A DNA stretch of 4,852 nucleotides from a virus (Duplodnaviria > Heunggongvirae > Uroviricota > Caudoviricetes). The notes beneath the pieces are model-generated. The model had not been told where the DNA came from and did no database searches. It saw only the letters and a list, made by a program, of their open reading frames with translations. Numbering within the stretch: position 1 is the first letter of the stretch; every line of letters starts with the position of its first letter. Below, in pieces: positions 1 to 4,852 of the stretch. The position numbers and the translations under genes are program-made. Where the stretch lies: positions 1 to 4,852 of the IMG/VR virus record IMGVR_UViG_2648501669_000010; one strand, written 5' to 3'.

Positions 1-49
1 TCGTTCAACACACTGCACAACAAAATCAACCCATATAAGGAAAGCTGAT

Positions 50-571
50 ATGACCACTATTACCAGAGAAAGCGCGGAGATTAAATCATTCATCACTGGT
101 TTCCTGAGCGATCCGGCGCACGATAACCAATCTTCAAACAGCCTGCTTACTAATGTGTTTCGTATCGCACTGGCGTCACTGGAAGCAGAGCCAGTGGCGT
201 GGAAGGCAACCTTCACGCAAATTGACAATGAATATAATACGTTCACTGCTCTGTATTCTGACAAAGCAGAAGTCGAACGGTGGGTGCGATTGCATGAAAT
301 AGGTGACTTTCGGGCAGAAATAACACCGCTTTACGCAGCGCCGTCAGCGCCGGTAATTCCGGATGGTTGGATAAGCTGTAGTGAGCGGATGCCAGAGGAC
401 GGTCAGCACGTAATTATTTTATGTGATGGCGCATTCGTTCTTTATGCGCAATATCGAGACGGTGAGTTTTTTGATGTCGTCCGCAATGGTGAGGAGTTCT
501 TCGAAACGCAGAGCCGCAATGTAACCGACTGGATGCCTCTACCAGAACCGCCGCAGGAGGTGAGTCGATGA
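50..571 (+). CDS. DUF551-domain phage protein (accessory early-region protein of unknown function)
   Basis: 173-aa ORF with ATG at 50 preceded by a purine-rich SD (aaggaaag, 37-44). The C-terminal part (DGWISCSERMPEDG...VTDWMPLPEPP) matches my recollection of the DUF551 signature common in lambdoid prophage nin/early regions. Family assignment is from memory, not a search. Confidence 0.65.
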   Translation: MTTITRESAEIKSFITGFLSDPAHDNQSSNSLLTNVFRIALASLEAEPVAWKATFTQIDNEYNTFTALYSDKAEVERWVRLHEIGDFRAEITPLYAAPSAPVIPDGWISCSERMPEDGQHVIILCDGAFVLYAQYRDGEFFDVVRNGEEFFETQSRNVTDWMPLPEPPQEVSR

Positions 572-614
572 CCTGGCCTGAAGCATTCACAACAATTGCT
601 GCGGGTGCTTGAGG

Positions 615-650
615 CTATCTGCCTCAGGCATGAACACCAACGGCAGATAG
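615..650. repeat. Perfect 9-bp inverted repeat (ctatctgcc / ggcagatag) with 18-nt spacer, between the DUF551 gene and mok
   Basis: Read directly: 615-623 ctatctgcc and 642-650 ggcagatag are exact reverse complements. No T-tract follows on either strand, so this is not an intrinsic terminator. It could be an RNA stem-loop in the hok leader or a dimeric protein-binding site. Confidence 0.5.
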
Positions 651-714
651 AGAAAAGCCCCAGTTAACATTACGCGTCCTGCAAGACGCTTAACATTAAT
701 CTGAGGCTCAATCT

Positions 715-927
715 ATGAACGGCAAATCTAGGTTAGCCTCTTACGTGCCGAAAGGCAAGGAGAAGCAGGCTATGAAGCAGCAAAAGGCGATGTTAGTCGC
801 CCTGATCGTCATCTGTTTAACCGTCATAGTGACGGCACTGGTAACGAGGAAAGACCTCTGTGAGGTACGAATCCGAACCGGCCAGACGGAGGTCGCTGTC
901 TTCACAGCTTACGAACCTGAGGAGTAA
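715..927 (+). CDS. mok: Mok-like reading frame (N-terminally extended form of Hok, modulator of killing)
   Basis: 70-aa ORF in the same frame as hok, starting 57 nt upstream. This is the same architecture as chromosomal mokC/hokC, where Mok is an N-terminal extension of Hok. The extension KGKEKQAMKQQK resembles the MokC extension as I recall it. GAGG at 703-706 sits upstream of ATG 715. Confidence 0.5.
   Translation: MNGKSRLASYVPKGKEKQAMKQQKAMLVALIVICLTVIVTALVTRKDLCEVRIRTGQTEVAVFTAYEPEE
772..927 (+). CDS. hokD: Hok/Gef-family type I toxin (small membrane-depolarising peptide), HokD/RelF-like
   Basis: 51-aa product MKQQKAMLVALIVICLTVIVTALVTRKDLCEVRIRTGQTEVAVFTAYEPEE: one hydrophobic transmembrane helix followed by the conserved Hok periplasmic tail (RKxLCEVRIRTGQTEVAVFTAYE). 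It is almost identical to E. coli HokD/RelF as I recall it. Strong SD AGGAG at 758-762, about 9 nt before ATG 772. Confidence 0.85.
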   Translation: MKQQKAMLVALIVICLTVIVTALVTRKDLCEVRIRTGQTEVAVFTAYEPEE

Positions 928-995
928 GAGACCCGGCGGGGGAGAAATCCCTCGCCACCCCTGATGTGTCAGGCATCCTCAATGCACCCGCACTT

Positions 996-1022
996 AACCC
1001 GCTTCGGCGGGTTTTGTTTTTT
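996..1022 (+). terminator. Rho-independent terminator downstream of hok (3' end of the hok mRNA)
   Basis: GC-rich hairpin cccgc(998-1002)-ttcg-gcggg(1007-1011), extendable by A:T pairs, followed directly by the T-tract ttttgtttttt (1012-1022). Confidence 0.75.
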
Positions 1023-1094
1023 CTGAGCATCCTGGTTTACAATCCACATGCCAGCCTGAACAACTGGCACCTGCTGCGCCAGCAGAGATAGCAG

Positions 1095-1367
1095 ATGGCG
1101 CACAAAACCAAATTTCACAAATCTGATACCGACCTTACCATCCGGCACGGGCGGCGTTCACGCGCATTTAAAACCGACTGGTTCCAGCATGACCCCTGCA
1201 CTGAAGAACAGGCCGAATGGCTGATTCAGAACTACCGCAGACGTGGCTATGAGTTTCAGAAAGACCTCAGTCTTGACTTCCGACACTGGATAATTTCCGT
1301 CAGGCTCCCCTATTCCGAACGCCCACCACGCCCGTCCCGCACATTCCAGCAACGCATCTGGAGGTAA
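1095..1367 (+). CDS. Small basic prophage protein, Rem-like (unknown function)
   Basis: 90-aa ORF rich in Arg/His (predicted basic). Its stop TAA (1365-1367) sits inside the GGAGG...GTG start context of the next gene, indicating translational coupling. Its position between hok and the DUF968 gene mirrors the hokD-rem-ydfU order I recall from the E. coli K-12 Qin prophage. The sequence-level assignment to Rem is from memory and tentative. Confidence 0.5.
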   Translation: MAHKTKFHKSDTDLTIRHGRRSRAFKTDWFQHDPCTEEQAEWLIQNYRRRGYEFQKDLSLDFRHWIISVRLPYSERPPRPSRTFQQRIWR

Positions 1368-1368
1368 C

Positions 1369-2418
1369 GTGCGGGTATTACTTCGACCTGTTCCGGTACC
1401 GGAACTCGGGCTGGTGGTCCTTAAGCCGGGGCGTGAATCCATGCAGGTATTTCATAACCCTCGAGTGCTGGTGGAGCCTGAACCGAAAAGCATGCGCGGG
1501 CTGCCGTCCGGAGTCGTTCCCGCCGTTCGCCAGCCGCTGGCGGAAGACAAATCATTACTGCCATTTTTCAGCGACGAACGGGTGATTCGTGCTGCTGGCG
1601 GTGCTGGAGCACTGTCTGACTGGCTCCTGCGTCATGTTAAATCCTGCCAGTGGCCTCATGGTGATTACCATCACAGCGAAACCGTCATACATCGTTACGG
1701 TACTGGCGCGATGGTGTTGTGCTGGCACTGCGACAACCAGTTGCGTGACCAGACCTCCCAATCACTTGAGCAACTTGCTCACCAAAACCTGTCAGCATGG
1801 ATGATTGACGTCATCCGTCACGCAATGAATGGCACACAGGAGCGGGAATTATCGCTGGCTGAATTATCCTGGTGGGCGGTCTGCAATCAGATGGTGGACG
1901 CACTACCTGAGGCAGTATCGCGTCGTTCACTGGGATTGCCAGCGGAAAAAATCCGCTCGGTGTACCGCGAAAGCGACATCATACCGGGAGAGCAGACAGC
2001 CACCAGCATACTGAAGCAGTGCACAAAAAATATTGCGCTACCACCTCACGCCCACCAGCAACAGAACCCACCACAGGAAAAGACGGTGGTCAGCATTGCC
2101 GTTGATCCGGATTCTCCTGAATCTTTCATGAAGCGACCTAAACGTCGCCGTTGGGTAAATGAGAAATATACGCGCTGGGTGAAGACACAGCCGTGTGCGT
2201 GTTGTGGTAAGCCAGCCGACGATCCCCATCACCTGATTGGTCATGGTCAGGGCGGAATGGGGACAAAAGCCCACGATATTTTCACGTTGCCGCTGTGTCG
2301 GGAACATCACAACGAGCTTCATGCTGATCCGCTGGCGTTCGAAGAAAAGCATGGTTCTCAGGTTGATTTGATTTTTCGTTTTCTTGAACACGCCTTTGCA
2401 ACTGGTGTGCTCGGATAA
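1369..2418 (+). CDS. DUF968-domain protein (YdfU-like) with C-terminal HNH-like zinc-finger/nuclease motif
   Basis: 349-aa ORF starting at GTG 1369 with GGAGG at 1360-1364. The C-terminus carries CACCGKPADDPHHLIGHGQGG...LCREHHNELH, i.e. a CxxC...HH...CxxHH...H arrangement typical of HNH-type metal-binding nuclease folds. Length and position match YdfU of the Qin prophage as I recall it. An alternative start at ATG 1441 is possible. Confidence 0.75.
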   Translation: MRVLLRPVPVPELGLVVLKPGRESMQVFHNPRVLVEPEPKSMRGLPSGVVPAVRQPLAEDKSLLPFFSDERVIRAAGGAGALSDWLLRHVKSCQWPHGDYHHSETVIHRYGTGAMVLCWHCDNQLRDQTSQSLEQLAHQNLSAWMIDVIRHAMNGTQERELSLAELSWWAVCNQMVDALPEAVSRRSLGLPAEKIRSVYRESDIIPGEQTATSILKQCTKNIALPPHAHQQQNPPQEKTVVSIAVDPDSPESFMKRPKRRRWVNEKYTRWVKTQPCACCGKPADDPHHLIGHGQGGMGTKAHDIFTLPLCREHHNELHADPLAFEEKHGSQVDLIFRFLEHAFATGVLG

Positions 2419-2430
2419 AAGAGGTTACTG

Positions 2431-2790
2431 ATGGGGATTGAATTTGTTTTGCCTTACCCGCCGACGGTGAACACCTACTGGCGACGTCGTGGCAGTACAT
2501 ATTTTGTATCAAAAGCCGGTGAGTGTTATCGCCGGGATGTGGCGCTAATTGTTCGCCAGCAGCGACTGAAATTAAACCTGTCCGGAAGGCTGGCAATAAA
2601 AATTACTGCGGAGCCACCGGATAAGCGCCGTCGTGACCTAGACAATATCCTGAAGGCACCGCTGGATGCGCTGACGCATGCTGGACTACTTATAGACGAC
2701 GAGCAGTTTGATGAAATCAATATAGTGCGCGGTTTGCCTGTTCCTGGTGGGCGGCTGGACGTGAAGATTTACAAAATTGAAAGTGAGTGA
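2431..2790 (+). CDS. rusA: Crossover junction endodeoxyribonuclease RusA (Holliday junction resolvase)
   Basis: 119-aa product with clear RusA-family motifs (LPYPPTVNTYW, PDKRRRDLDNILKAPLDALT, GGRLDV), the right length of about 120 aa, and SD AGAGG at 2420-2424 before ATG 2431. It sits in the canonical lambdoid position immediately upstream of Q. Confidence 0.9.
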   Translation: MGIEFVLPYPPTVNTYWRRRGSTYFVSKAGECYRRDVALIVRQQRLKLNLSGRLAIKITAEPPDKRRRDLDNILKAPLDALTHAGLLIDDEQFDEINIVRGLPVPGGRLDVKIYKIESE

Positions 2791-3359
2791 GCGTAAATAT
2801 GATATACCCGGAAATTACAGGCAAAAGCGGTGAGCATTTACGCCTGAAAACGCTGGAAAGTGTCTGGCTCCAGGGAAAACTGCGTATGTGGGGGCGTTGG
2901 TCGTATATTGGCGGCGGTAAGACGGGAAATATGTTCAACCAATTACTGACCTCTAAAAAGCTGACAAAAACGGCAATTAACGAGGCGCTCCGGAGGATGA
3001 AAAAAGCGGGTCTGGACAAACCTGAACTTGAGGCTTTTTTGCGGGATATGATCAACGGCAATCAAAAAAGCTGGCTGGCACATTGTACCGATTCAGAGGC
3101 GTTAATAATCGACAGGGTTATTGGTGAAGCCCTGGCAGGTTATCCCGGGCTGCTCAATGTCCTGAGTCAGCGTTATGTGGGGCGGGGGATGACTAAGCGC
3201 AAAATGGCTGAACTGCTGAATGATGCACACCCGGAATGGAGTTTAAGAACCTGTGAAAGACGCATTGAGCATTGGCTAAAGGTGGCAGAATTTATTTTGT
3301 ACAAACCAATGGTTATGGCTTTTGGTATAGAGAAAAAAAGTTATTGCTTTTTGACGTAA
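2787..3359 (+). CDS. Late-gene antitermination protein Q (phage 82 / QuuD-type family)
   Basis: 190-aa ORF whose GTG start overlaps the rusA stop (gTGA at 2787-2790); an alternative start is ATG 2799. The N-terminal region (LESVWLQGKLRMWGRWSY...NQLLTSKK) resembles the LERWGAW...GLITSK motif I recall in QuuD/phage-82-type Q proteins. Synteny supports it: rusA upstream and an intrinsic terminator just downstream, as expected for Q - PR' - tR'. Confidence 0.7.
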   Translation: MSVNMIYPEITGKSGEHLRLKTLESVWLQGKLRMWGRWSYIGGGKTGNMFNQLLTSKKLTKTAINEALRRMKKAGLDKPELEAFLRDMINGNQKSWLAHCTDSEALIIDRVIGEALAGYPGLLNVLSQRYVGRGMTKRKMAELLNDAHPEWSLRTCERRIEHWLKVAEFILYKPMVMAFGIEKKSYCFLT

Positions 3360-3431
3360 AAACTGCTTCAATTCCGGTACGCTTCGCAAAGCTGTACCGC
3401 GAGGCGAATAGCAGACATGGACATTTGAAAG

Positions 3432-3456
3432 AGCCCGCTTTTTGCGGGTTTTTTTT
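3432..3456 (+). terminator. Rho-independent terminator downstream of Q (candidate tR'-like late terminator)
   Basis: Hairpin cccgc(3434-3438)-ttttt-gcggg(3444-3448) followed by an 8-T tract (3449-3456), about 75 nt after the Q stop codon. In lambdoid phages the late promoter PR' and its Q-antiterminated terminator lie in this position. Confidence 0.7.
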
Positions 3457-3578
3457 ATGCCTGAAAAACGGCACAGAACATTAAACGCGCTAGTGGTTCC
3501 GAATACCGGTCTTTCAGCTTGCTGGCTTTTTCGACAAGAGGTATTGGTATGTCACGTTAACCAGAAAAGGGAAAAGAC

Positions 3579-3776
3579 ATGCTAAAACAGCAGGATATGA
3601 CTGAAACCGCCAGAGTGGTGTTTAATGAATTAAGCGTCACCGAACCGGCGACCGTCGGGGAAATTGCGCAGAATACGTACCTTTCACGCGAACGCTGTCA
3701 GTTAATACTGACCCAGCTTGTTATGGCGGGTCTGGCAGATCATCAGTTCGGTTGTTACAGACGCCTTCCGCAGTGA
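3579..3776 (+). CDS. Small (65 aa) putative winged-helix/HTH DNA-binding protein, hypothetical
   Basis: ORF with a purine-rich upstream stretch (aaagggaaaag) before ATG 3579. The segment PATVGEIAQNTYLSRERCQLILTQLVMAGL has the spacing and hydrophobic pattern of a helix-turn-helix recognition unit. No family is recognised from memory. Codon pattern looks coding, but the call rests on ORF plus motif only. Confidence 0.45.
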   Translation: MLKQQDMTETARVVFNELSVTEPATVGEIAQNTYLSRERCQLILTQLVMAGLADHQFGCYRRLPQ

Positions 3777-3831
3777 AGGCTTTTTAATTTGTGGTAATGG
3801 GCGGCTGGTGGGTGTTAGCGGCACCTGCCAG

Positions 3832-3880
3832 CCATCTGCTCATGCGTTGGGGTCACAAGCAAACCTCAGGCCCATCTGCT
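3832..3880. repeat. Two copies of 9-bp direct repeat ccatctgct (3832-3840 and 3872-3880), 40 bp apart, in the spacer upstream of the methyltransferase gene
   Basis: Read directly from the sequence. Both copies are followed within a few bases by tgcg. A 40-bp spacing is about four helical turns. This could be chance (rough expectation of a few percent in a 150-bp spacer) or paired binding sites. Confidence 0.35.
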
Positions 3881-3926
3881 TTGCGCAAAAGCGGTATGAG
3901 CCTATCAGAGAAGTGCTTATTGATCT

Positions 3927-4852
3927 ATGGTTAATACTGTAAAAATATCCAGTTGTGAGTTAATCAACGCTGATTGCCTGGAATTTATCCAGACCTTGCC
4001 GGAAAACTCTGTCGATCTGATAGTCACAGACCCGCCATACTTTAAAGTGAAGCCCGAAGGCTGGGATAACCAGTGGAAGGGCGACGATGATTACCTGAAA
4101 TGGCTGGATCAGTGTCTGGCGCAATTCTGGCGGGTACTGAAACCTGCCGGAAGTCTCTACCTGTTCTGTGGTCATCGCCTGGCATCTGATATCGAAATCA
4201 TGATGCGTCAGCGCTTTAATGTGCTGAACCACATTATCTGGGCGAAGCCGTCCGGACGCTGGAACGGATGCAACAAGGAAAGCCTGCGGGCGTATTTCCC
4301 GGCAACAGAACGCATTCTGTTTGCGGAACATTATCAGGGGCCATACCAGCCCAAAAATGACGGCTATGCGGCAAAGGGGCGCGAGCTAAAACAGCACGTC
4401 ATGGCCCCGCTGATTTCTTACTTTCGTGATGCGCGTGAATCACTGGGGGTAACATCGAAACAGATAGCGGAAGCCACCGGAAAGAAAAACATGGCGTCAC
4501 ACTGGTTTGGTACCAGTCAGTGGCAGTTGCCGAACGAGGGTGATTACAGAAAACTGCAGGTGTTATTTGCACGTGTAGCGGCAGAAAAGCATCAGCGCGG
4601 AGAACTGGAAAAACCACATCACCAGCTGGTCAGCGCATACAGTGAACTGAACCGGCAATATGCCAGTCTGCTGGATGAATACAAATCACTGCGGCGTTAT
4701 TTTTCCGTATCAGCTGCAGTGCCGTATACGGATGTCTGGACGCACAAGCCCGTGCAGTATTATCCGGGCAAACATCCCTGCGAAAAACCGGCGGATATGT
4801 TGCGGCAGATAATAGAGGCCAGCAGTCACCCTGGTGATTTGGTTGCGGATTT
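3927..4852 (+). CDS. DNA methyltransferase, beta-class (N6-adenine or N4-cytosine), 3'-truncated by window end
   Basis: Open frame from ATG 3927 to the window end with no stop (308 codons); the six-frame track omits it only because it is unterminated. The N-terminus NADCLEFIQTLPENSVDLIVTDPPY carries the catalytic motif IV (DPPY) of amino-methyltransferases, followed by a conserved-looking core (LKPAGSLYLFCG). Motif IV lying N-terminal to the AdoMet-binding motif I (expected beyond 4852) defines the beta-class arrangement. A weak SD before ATG 3927 makes the exact start uncertain. Confidence 0.85.
   Translation, partial: MVNTVKISSCELINADCLEFIQTLPENSVDLIVTDPPYFKVKPEGWDNQWKGDDDYLKWLDQCLAQFWRVLKPAGSLYLFCGHRLASDIEIMMRQRFNVLNHIIWAKPSGRWNGCNKESLRAYFPATERILFAEHYQGPYQPKNDGYAAKGRELKQHVMAPLISYFRDARESLGVTSKQIAEATGKKNMASHWFGTSQWQLPNEGDYRKLQVLFARVAAEKHQRGELEKPHHQLVSAYSELNRQYASLLDEYKSLRRYFSVSAAVPYTDVWTHKPVQYYPGKHPCEKPADMLRQIIEASSHPGDLVAD

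Follow-up and report, generated by a model that had tools for sequence, protein, structure and literature searches.

The window analysed here, meaning the whole stretch of 4852 bp, is taken from a tailed phage (Caudoviricetes; IMG/VR record IMGVR_UViG_2648501669_000010, positions 1 to 4,852) and covers the part of a lambdoid prophage where the nin region gives way to the late genes. Its subject is a 65-codon open reading frame (ORF) together with the cassette in which it lies, made up of an upstream DNA motif, the ORF itself, a hairpin at its stop codon (P0), a 150-bp spacer and a gene for an adenine methylase of the M.EcoGII type (Table 1). A first-pass annotation of the same DNA had placed this ORF in the late-operon cargo slot after Q, with a methyltransferase gene 150 bp further on in the same orientation. 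The coordinates and the spacing match, and the ORF does occupy the first slot behind a Q-like gene. The protein that it encodes is probably a control or partner protein of the methylase and not a classical controller protein.

Table 1. Features of the cassette, followed by those of its surroundings, with positions counted from the first base of the window
Feature	Position	Strand	Remarks
Motif TTGCTG-N11-MAGAGKTAY (here TTGCTGGCTTTTTCGACAAGAGGTAT), then GTATGTCAC	3519..3544	+	Candidate operator/promoter of the small ORF
Shine-Dalgarno-like AAGGGA of the small ORF	3567..3572	+	7 nt before the ATG; read from the sequence
Small ORF, ATG start, 65 codons	3579..3776	+	Modelled as a 65-residue minimal winged-helix protein; PHROG_331
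P0 hairpin GCCTTC-CGCAGT-GAAGGC, then TTTTTAATTT	3763..3790 (stem-loop 3763-3780)	+	Terminator scan
P1, long interrupted hairpin AUGGGC-GGCUGGUGGGUGU ... GCACCUGCCAGCC-AUCU-GCUCAU	3797..3843	+	RNAalifold, minimum-free-energy fold, covariation
P2/P3 domain	3850..3926	+	RNAalifold, minimum-free-energy fold, covariation
P3, inner hairpin	3868-3903	+	Enclosed by P2
PF01555 DNA methylase gene, M.EcoGII type, beta-class N6-adenine	3927..4852, runs off the window	+	PF01555, E = 4e-29
Intrinsic-terminator-like hairpin GCCCGC-TTTTT-GCGGGT with T8 run	3433..3456	+	Left cassette boundary; read from the sequence
Q-like antiterminator gene, DUF1133 type	2787..3359	+	Context only, outside the cassette
DUF551 gene			First in the gene order of the window
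hok/sok-type type I toxin-antitoxin module, complete	603-927		Rfam sok, 108.7 bits; Hok/Gef ORF 715-927
90-residue ORF			After the hok/sok module
DUF968 gene, then rusA			Between the 90-residue ORF and the Q-like gene

Strong purifying selection marks the small ORF as a genuine gene. Among 19 orthologues from different genera (Escherichia, Salmonella, Klebsiella, Citrobacter, Kluyvera, Buttiauxella, Enterobacter, Proteus and others), the mean difference between pairs was 0.19, 0.15 and 0.48 at the three codon positions, and the median dN/dS was 0.09. Conservation at the protein level, which the first-pass annotation had put forward as a check on its proposal, is thus clear. A purine-rich block is also kept in the alignment at the position of the Shine-Dalgarno sequence. 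The product matches PHROG_331, a phage protein family without an assigned function, over residues 1-64 (E = 8.3e-37), and the identical protein has been recorded from E. coli. The family is uncharacterised and its annotation is generic: RefSeq (PGAP) calls the product a 'hypothetical protein', and near-identical relatives as well as GenBank copies of the same protein are named 'TrmB family transcriptional regulator'. When 1.84 billion representative proteins were searched with a profile, a small family of 85 clusters emerged at E <= 0.001, which is confined to temperate phages of Enterobacterales. Membership in an anti-phage defence family was considered and rejected, as a search of the small ORF against the PADLOC families gave noise only.

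A complete minimal winged helix, with the order H1-H2-H3-beta-beta, is confidently predicted for the 65-residue protein. The AlphaFold2 model, calculated from a 26-sequence alignment, has a pLDDT of 88.4 and a pTM of 0.75 and contains H1 (residues 4-16), H2 (26-33), H3 (37-49) and strands at 53-56 and 59-62 that form a two-strand wing. The helix-turn-helix-like core recognised earlier is accordingly part of a full domain of the winged helix-turn-helix superfamily. Pfam matches were all below threshold and all to winged-helix families (TrmB, DprA_WH, MarR_2, HTH_24 and Rrf2). The TrmB match (PF01978) reached 18.5 bits against a gathering cut-off of 25.6, and the 65 residues hold no second domain. 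An identification as TrmB was rejected on this score and on the missing C-terminal sugar-binding domain, so that the name expresses a resemblance at the domain level only. The top matches in Foldseek (TM 0.7-0.83, E ~1e-3), to solved and predicted structures, were the winged-helix domains of IclR, PcaR and OhrR/MarR regulators, the dimerisation domain of O-methyltransferases, SelB and Z-alpha, the last of which was dismissed as an identity because its signature residues are missing. Profiles and structure together point to a winged helix of the MarR/IclR/TrmB type and not to the Xre-like helix-turn-helix that had been named beside it in the first-pass annotation. The N-terminal domains of MarR, TrmB and IclR have this fold and the 'LxxLxxxGL' pattern of helix 3 in common with the small protein, but they belong to proteins of 130-350 residues with dimerisation and/or ligand-binding parts, whereas here the bare 65-residue domain stands by itself. 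The winged helix is a generic fold, and the model does not of itself fix a ligand.

Conservation within the family falls on two regions, the N-terminus and the recognition helix H3 ('RCQLILTQL'), with H2 and the wing being variable. Four residues (M1, T8, T45 and Q46) are invariant in members down to 35% identity, and six more (M7, A11, C40, L44, A50 and G51) are nearly so. Two cysteines are conserved, C40 and one near the C-terminus, and there are no CxxC pairs. A second E. coli allele, carried by Stx2c phages (L104 2283-2486), is 50% identical to the first; the C-terminal half of H1, H2 and the wing differ, and the N-terminus and H3 are almost identical. This allele is joined to the same motif, the same leader and a methylase that is 88% identical, which shows that alleles are shuffled inside the cassette.

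The pairing of the small ORF with the methylase is strong, though not absolute, in a region of evidently frequent recombination. The methylase lies 153-162 bp 3' of the ORF in 19 of 21 genus-level loci, the two exceptions being a contig end and a replacement, and at 150-151 bp in 71 of the 72 viral contigs with room downstream, so the co-occurrence that the first-pass annotation had suggested checking is borne out. The same Q type is found upstream in only 20 of these 72 contigs, and the Q genes ahead of the cassettes belong to four families (PF03589, PF06323, PF06530 and DUF1133). Five divergent family members (35-50% identity) retain the order of Q, ORF and PF01555 methylase, followed by holin/lysis genes in the four that are long enough to show them. 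Two members, L119 and L120, keep the motif and the ORF beside a methylase pseudogene. In Stx2k-type phages (L105 3097-4144, and L030), a 237-residue AraC-family gene, apparently with a TATAAT box of its own, has replaced the methylase and the rest of the leader; the small gene, the motif, P0 and the first leader hairpin (P1) are retained, and the junction falls directly after P1. An orphan family member of 70 residues (P0176; L121/L122 2501-2713), present in 31 collection blocks, is chromosomal in a setting that does not look like a prophage, with Mla-like transporter genes, DUF1398 and AraC as neighbours.

Upstream of the gene, the motif TTGCTG-N11-MAGAGKTAY is the sole non-coding DNA element that is conserved as widely as H3 and at a constant distance from the gene. 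Its consensus is extended by GTRTGTCA, and it occurs once in the window, where 0.03 occurrences are expected by chance. In 109 of 123 loci, among them members with 35-45% identity, it is found once per locus, 61-69 nt 5' of the ATG, and it is also kept where the spacer is short or the methylase absent. Thus, motif and gene stay together in L110 with its 73-nt spacer, in a Stx2k phage with the AraC-type gene, and in both loci with a methylase pseudogene. A blind scan of viral contigs with the longer motif returned 120 independent matches, 111 of which were directly followed by a family member; the remainder were accounted for by contig ends, one nonsense allele and four deletion remnants. The first-pass annotation had sought an operator in 3777-3926, but that interval is an RNA leader, and the DNA element linked to the ORF lies on its other side, at 3519-3544. 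In the four deletion remnants (L146, L154, L165 and L214), the motif and the 5' untranslated region up to the Shine-Dalgarno sequence are kept, and the gene, leader and methylase are gone; ~0.8 kb of non-coding DNA follows the motif, and then an ORF of 645 residues, which we take to resemble the nanS-p esterases of Stx phages.

The motif is promoter-like, with a -35-like TTGCTG, a 17-bp gap and a poor -10 element (TAYNNG). Near-identical motif regions, within near-identical cassettes, follow three different Q families, and the motif is therefore not a Q-specific pR'. Sites for sigma-54, sigma-32, CRP, LexA, IHF and DnaA were looked for by eye against consensus sequences, a weak test that yielded no convincing fit. 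The idea that CUUGCUG pairs at long range, as RNA, with codons 4-6 of the ORF (CAGCAAG) was likewise discarded, as this pairing is confined to the close group and not conserved in divergent loci.

The gene downstream is, from its sequence, an orphan orthologue of M.EcoGII. Identity to M.EcoGII is 86% over 308 residues, including the N-terminal VTDPPYFKV, with the reference sequence taken from the supplement of PMC11551740. No restriction endonuclease gene was found beside the methylase in the loci with tabulated genes, where tRNAs, stx or lysis genes stand instead, and the earlier description of the methyltransferase as an orphan is upheld. M.EcoGII is a non-specific adenine methyltransferase from a prophage of E. 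coli O104:H4 that is silent in the lysogen, deleterious under constitutive expression and active on RNA as well (PMC5778455). Phage 1720a-02, named there as the bearer of a very similar enzyme (PMC5778455), has the whole cassette. Layered control is expected for a methylase of this type, and the literature searched made no mention of a regulator of M.EcoGII or of an upstream ORF. The start of the methylase gene is fixed by an in-frame TGA at 3921-3923, two codons 5' of the AUG, and no Shine-Dalgarno sequence is present within 15 nt of this AUG.

Between the two genes lie P0 and a structured leader. The TGA of the small ORF spans the loop and the beginning of the 3' arm of P0, and a U-rich run follows; P0 resembles a leaky intrinsic terminator placed between the small ORF and the methylase. 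Most lineages retain a hairpin at or close to the stop codon, although the sequence of its stem differs and the U-tract varies in quality; in the divergent locus L110, a plain hairpin with U6 is found at this position.

The next ~145 nt (3790-3935) form a candidate new cis-regulatory RNA that would mask the Shine-Dalgarno-less methylase start. P2 pairs 3850-3860 (GGGUCAC.AAGC) with 3915-3926 (GCUU..UGAUCU) and abuts the methylase AUG. The leader of the window folds with a minimum free energy of -74.6 kcal/mol (z = -3.7 versus shuffles), and the mean pairwise difference of the spacer core is 0.18, as compared to 0.48 at the synonymous sites of the small ORF. A covariance model of the leader structure (R1) was applied to a close set of 29 sequences and to a wide set of 24 that includes distant phages. 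Standard pairs filled 92% of the pair cells in the close set and 90% in the wide set, as opposed to 29-43% and 28-42%, respectively, when the 3' partners were slid by 1-3 columns. Pairs changed on both sides numbered 14 of 40 in the close set, where shuffles gave 3.6 +/- 1.3 and slid controls 2-6, and 30 of 40 in the wide set, where shuffles gave 10.9 +/- 2.3 and slid controls 8-15. The covariation score was 0.137 versus 0.098 for shuffled alignments in the close set and 0.32 versus 0.13 in the wide set. These slid and shuffled controls are reported because the alignments were fitted to the covariance model, which biases the pair counts towards that model; P2 was lost when the alignment was made by MAFFT only. 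Double changes in the wide set affect 14 of the 18 pairs in helices 1 and 2 of P1, 9 of 10 pairs in P2 and 7 of 12 in P3, and P1 is free to vary in its upper stem and loop. G-U pairs are frequently exchanged for A-U or G-C pairs and vice versa, which indicates that selection acts on the RNA of the + strand and not on a DNA palindrome.

The first-pass annotation had seen only direct repeats in the spacer, and it missed the imperfect inverted repeats that form these conserved RNA hairpins; at the DNA level, a search for inverted repeats in 3340-3990 found none. The direct repeat CCATCTGCT, at 3832-3840 and 3872-3880, is real in the window, and both copies are altered in most other genera, for example to CCATTCGCT and CCCACTGCT. 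A known RNA was rejected as an identity for the spacer: no Rfam model matched 3480-3960 at E <= 10, nor the leader region when the whole window was searched at E <= 1. The leader is also spanned by a 47-codon ORF (3791-3934, + strand; 45 codons from an AUG at 3797) that stops 5 nt past the methylase AUG, a position that would allow translational coupling in this lineage. This ORF is broken by 1-nt indels or stops in close relatives and comes down to 7 codons (MGGWWVL) in most genera, and is probably not a gene. An extended -10 promoter, TGTGnnAAT at 3791-3799, serving an independent small RNA is unlikely given that the TG-AAT spacing varies by 1-2 nt, and a pseudoknot between the P1 loop and CUAUCA was dropped for inconsistent support. 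Inside the 5' arm of P1, at 3804-3811 (+), lies an exact Chi octamer (GCTGGTGG), and a one-mismatch Chi (GCTAGTGG) is found just 5' of the motif at 3489-3496 (+), so that the small gene is flanked by two Chi sites in the same orientation. In many related loci the latter copy is an exact Chi, and an exact Chi is also present in the unrelated short spacer of L110 and L112. By the textbook rule, as we take it, RecBCD would recognise Chi in this orientation when it enters at the cos/lysis end.

The same leader is found in phages well outside this set. It lies right upstream of M.EcoGII-family genes in N15 (gp52), phiKO2, PY54, VHML (orf17), Serratia OS31, the Q-encoding E. coli phage LLS (near-identical, 161 bits) and Citrobacter phiNP, and stands ~125 nt 5' of the annotated methylase start in one Aeromonas phage and one Vibrio phage. 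Copies outside the window include L244 1670-1809, L245 1616-1759, L247 1690-1826, L249 1366-1509 and L252 1366-1509. Lambdoid, N15-like, VHML-like and HK97-like temperate phages are thereby represented, and phiNP is the only one of these leader phages outside the main set to carry the full ORF cassette. In the other direction, L110 keeps the ORF and motif with a short spacer that has a plain terminator hairpin and an ordinary Shine-Dalgarno sequence, and L113 keeps them with a reduced leader. The occurrence of leader and methylase without the ORF, and of ORF and motif without the leader, makes methylase and leader the older unit, to which lambdoid prophages of enterobacteria have added the small ORF along with the motif and P0.

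Distant members or relatives of the small protein were detected in N15 gp51 and phiKO2 Gp51 (hmmsearch E = 2e-4 and 1.4e-3), which have the 'NMTEEA' N-terminus and the H3 pattern. As with the small ORF, their genes stand just before the leader, an M.EcoGII-family methylase gene (gp52) and lysis genes. They differ in that Gp51 is encoded upstream of an annotated late promoter and terminator, and thus outside the methylase transcription unit, and in having no TTGCTG-N11-MAGAG motif. The GenBank start of N15 gene 52 (L244 position 2035) appears to be ~230 nt too far downstream: a tblastn match begins with methylase residue 1 at 1801, right after the leader RNA, and would extend gp52 to L244 1801-2889.

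The gene, its fold, its synteny, the motif, the P0 hairpin, the covarying leader that pairs just ahead of the methylase start and the assignment of the methylase itself were each established by computation. That the protein binds DNA, where it does so, that a promoter is active, that transcripts end at P0 and that the leader represses translation are what we infer. Tentatively, we favour a model in which the small protein is an autoregulator or gatekeeper of the cassette that binds DNA sequence-specifically and acts on the upstream motif through H3. Under this model, a stand-alone winged-helix nucleic-acid-binding protein would be the accessory control gene of a late-operon cassette that has a toxic methylase as cargo. 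H3 (T45-Q46, C40 and L44) would bind the motif, which would overlap a weak cassette promoter ~60 nt 5' of the protein's own start and so give autoregulation; the invariant T45 and Q46 would find their counterpart in the invariant motif. In the lysogen, the cassette promoter would yield the small protein only, with transcription ending at P0, although the terminating ribosome could mask this leaky hairpin. Any read-through message would be poorly translated, the methylase start having no Shine-Dalgarno sequence and being paired within P2. Upon induction, Q-modified polymerase coming from pR' would pass tR' and P0, methylase message would be made, and the DNA of the progeny phage would be modified.

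Several lines of evidence are consistent with this model. The nearest named families and, for the predicted fold, the nearest structures are, for the most part, regulators that bind DNA. No part of the protein is better conserved than H3, and the motif is the one piece of non-coding DNA that is conserved equally widely. The succession of promoter, ORF and terminator-like hairpin would be the classic 'moron' layout, in the account of Juhala et al. 2000 as relayed in PMC4104026. Other observations weigh against autoregulation through the motif. As a sigma-70 promoter the motif fits poorly, with ~6 of 12 consensus positions and a last -10 position that is not T, and a consensus promoter scan did not call it; its dyad is a mere 3 bp (CTG...CAG). 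No element for dimerisation is obvious in the protein, whose net charge is ~ -1, and the conservation of H3 could equally mean a protein-protein interface. The orphan chromosomal copy P0176 has neither motif nor leader nor methylase. Relatives of the small ORF are absent in the leader-methylase phages LLS, OS31 and VHML and in those of Vibrio and Aeromonas; methylase and leader thus occur without the small gene, and the enzyme therefore does not need it.

The main rival to an autoregulator is a protein that binds the methylase itself, as a targeting or specificity subunit or as an antitoxin-like inhibitor, which we regard as a possibility, if a rather doubtful one. The N-terminus and H3 would contact the enzyme, the variable H2 and wing would contact nucleic acid, and the non-specificity and toxicity of M.EcoGII would be traits of an enzyme deprived of its native partner. 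A partnership of this kind would account for a synteny that is very tight despite frequent recombination on both sides, and for the two 50%-identical E. coli alleles, which have an almost identical N-terminus and H3 in common and are combined with near-identical methylases. It also agrees with the behaviour of M.EcoGII alone, which is without sequence specificity and methylates RNA too (PMC5778455). A precedent exists in PNB-2 of the Stx2a phage PA8, a winged helix-turn-helix protein whose gene lies upstream of, and is co-transcribed with, an MT-A70 methylase gene; PNB-2 forms a 1:1 complex with M.EcoPA8orf6770P and redirects it to 16S rRNA, and the two co-occur in >83% (PMC10810198). PNB-2 and the small protein are alike in being encoded by a small winged helix-turn-helix gene immediately 5' of a prophage adenine methyltransferase gene in a Stx phage. 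However, PNB-2 has 143 residues, its gene overlaps the methylase gene and lies near int instead of in the late operon, and its partner is an MT-A70 enzyme with DPPW as compared to PF01555 with DPPY here. No homology between the two was detectable, the hhalign probability being 15%. The layout also speaks against a subunit: a hairpin resembling a terminator and 150 nt of structured RNA stand between the genes, unlike the usual arrangement for stoichiometric subunits, and their translation signals are very different. Furthermore, enzymes of this methylase family work without the protein in vitro (PMC5778455) and exist without it in several phages, and intact copies of the small gene are found beside methylase pseudogenes, beside the AraC gene and alone.

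Three further explanations compete with the autoregulator. A translational regulator similar to Com of phage Mu would bind the leader RNA, for example at P1, and open or close P2 over the methylase start, which we consider quite improbable. Com is a Cys4 zinc-finger RNA-binding protein that acts on the mom message, and com overlaps mom. A parallel between Mom and M.EcoGII has been drawn before (PMC12707154), and the layouts are indeed alike, each having a gene for a protein of ~60 residues directly 5' of a toxic, lysogen-silent modification enzyme, a start masked in RNA structure, and expression limited to late lytic growth. In favour of such a role, the evidence for the leader structure is strong, winged helices are capable of binding RNA, the structural matches include SelB domains, and in the Stx2k-type phages the junction lies just past P1, so that P1 stays with the small gene. 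The small protein itself has no Com-like feature: it is a winged helix whose two conserved cysteines, with no CxxC, do not make a Cys4 zinc finger, and an identity with Com was rejected on this ground. The genes here are 150 nt apart, the leader and methylase occur in phages without the protein (LLS among them), L110 and L113 retain the protein without the (full) leader, and the upper stem and loop of P1 are free to vary while H3 is invariant. The small gene could otherwise be an independent 'moron', encoding a transcription factor for host genes or other phages and linked to the methylase through a shared insertion hotspot after tR'. Its own promoter-like element and terminator-like hairpin, its addition to an older leader-methylase unit, the orphan chromosomal copy kept in one lineage and the copies beside methylase pseudogenes are in keeping with independence; yet independence predicts that other late genes would frequently be found downstream, and the methylase is missing in just 1 of 72 viral contigs. 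The pairing moreover persists to 35-45% identity and across four Q families, despite recombination within a few hundred bases, and we hold an independent role to be unlikely.

The controller type that the first-pass annotation had proposed is hardly credible. C proteins are all-helical dimers with an Xre-type helix-turn-helix that bind inverted repeats (C-boxes) and time the expression of the endonuclease in restriction-modification systems. With C proteins such as C.PvuII, C.AhdI and C.Esp1396I, the small protein shares its size and its place upstream of a modification gene in the same orientation, and, if the autoregulator model holds, it would also share autoregulation through a site 5' of its own gene. 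The proposal failed on fold, C-box and endonuclease alike: the protein is a predicted winged helix with no HTH_3-type Pfam match at E <= 1, its matches being to winged-helix families, the motif is no C-box, and the methylase is an orphan with no endonuclease gene in the loci examined. Membership in the C-protein class is ruled out on these three counts.

A broader reading joins the leader to a protein partner, with M.EcoGII under multi-layer control by a new class of cis-regulatory leader and by a winged-helix natural partner; taken as a whole, this combination is distinctly doubtful. As part of it, the leader is suggested to have co-evolved with the methylase across phages of Enterobacterales, Vibrio and Aeromonas, and the methylase itself may sense or modify this RNA, which would amount to autogenous translational control. 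Should a protein partner restrain or target the enzyme, the 'non-specificity' and toxicity of M.EcoGII would describe an orphaned catalytic subunit only, and the retargeting of phage methylases by small winged-helix proteins, a recent discovery, would gain a further case.

M.EcoGII is a common tool for chromatin and RNA footprinting and the textbook case of a non-specific methylase kept silent by its prophage, and the cassette makes the long-open question of how it is silenced directly testable. In Stx2e, Stx2a, Stx2c and Stx2d phages, the cassette lies directly 5' of the toxin genes and shares a late transcript with them, and termination or modulation there could therefore affect toxin expression. 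As far as the searchable literature shows, the architecture of the cassette, the motif and the RNA leader have not been described. Publications found on pR' regions, StxS, anti-sRNAs and Pas sRNAs describe neither the small ORF nor the leader. The small ORF is of a kind already known, a gene for a small nucleic-acid-binding protein coupled to a phage methylase, and the leader RNA is arguably the more novel of the two.

The block to which the cassette belongs is widespread, being held by 2400 of 5426 complete E. coli genomes (~44%; best identity 97.8%) and also by phages P27, SfV and 1720a-02 and many Stx2a, Stx2c and Stx2d phages. The nearest annotated E. coli prophage has the gene order Q, small ORF, methylase, tRNAs, stx2e and lysis genes. 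The Q-like gene of the window matches DUF1133 in Pfam (5e-105), PF06530 (Phage_antitermQ) weakly, and PHROG 753, 'anti-termination protein Q-like'. A 10-bp hairpin, CGGTACGCTT-CGCA-AAGCTGTACCG, is found directly 3' of the Q stop codon, before the strong terminator (3375-3456), and 3381-3454 has a weak isrK-like match in Rfam (19.8 bits, E = 0.46). The stretch 3375-3456 is probably the short pR'-tR' transcript of a DUF1133-type Q, a counterpart of lambda 6S RNA or StxS. The hairpin at 3433-3456 would then be a candidate for the tR' that ends this transcript, and pR' and tR' would both lie between Q and the end of that hairpin. An equivalent hairpin with a U-run stands 20-70 nt 5' of the motif in most of the related loci inspected, L123 being the exception. 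Far upstream in the window, a second weak isrK-type Rfam match, terminator-like, lies beside the hok/sok module at 936-1017.

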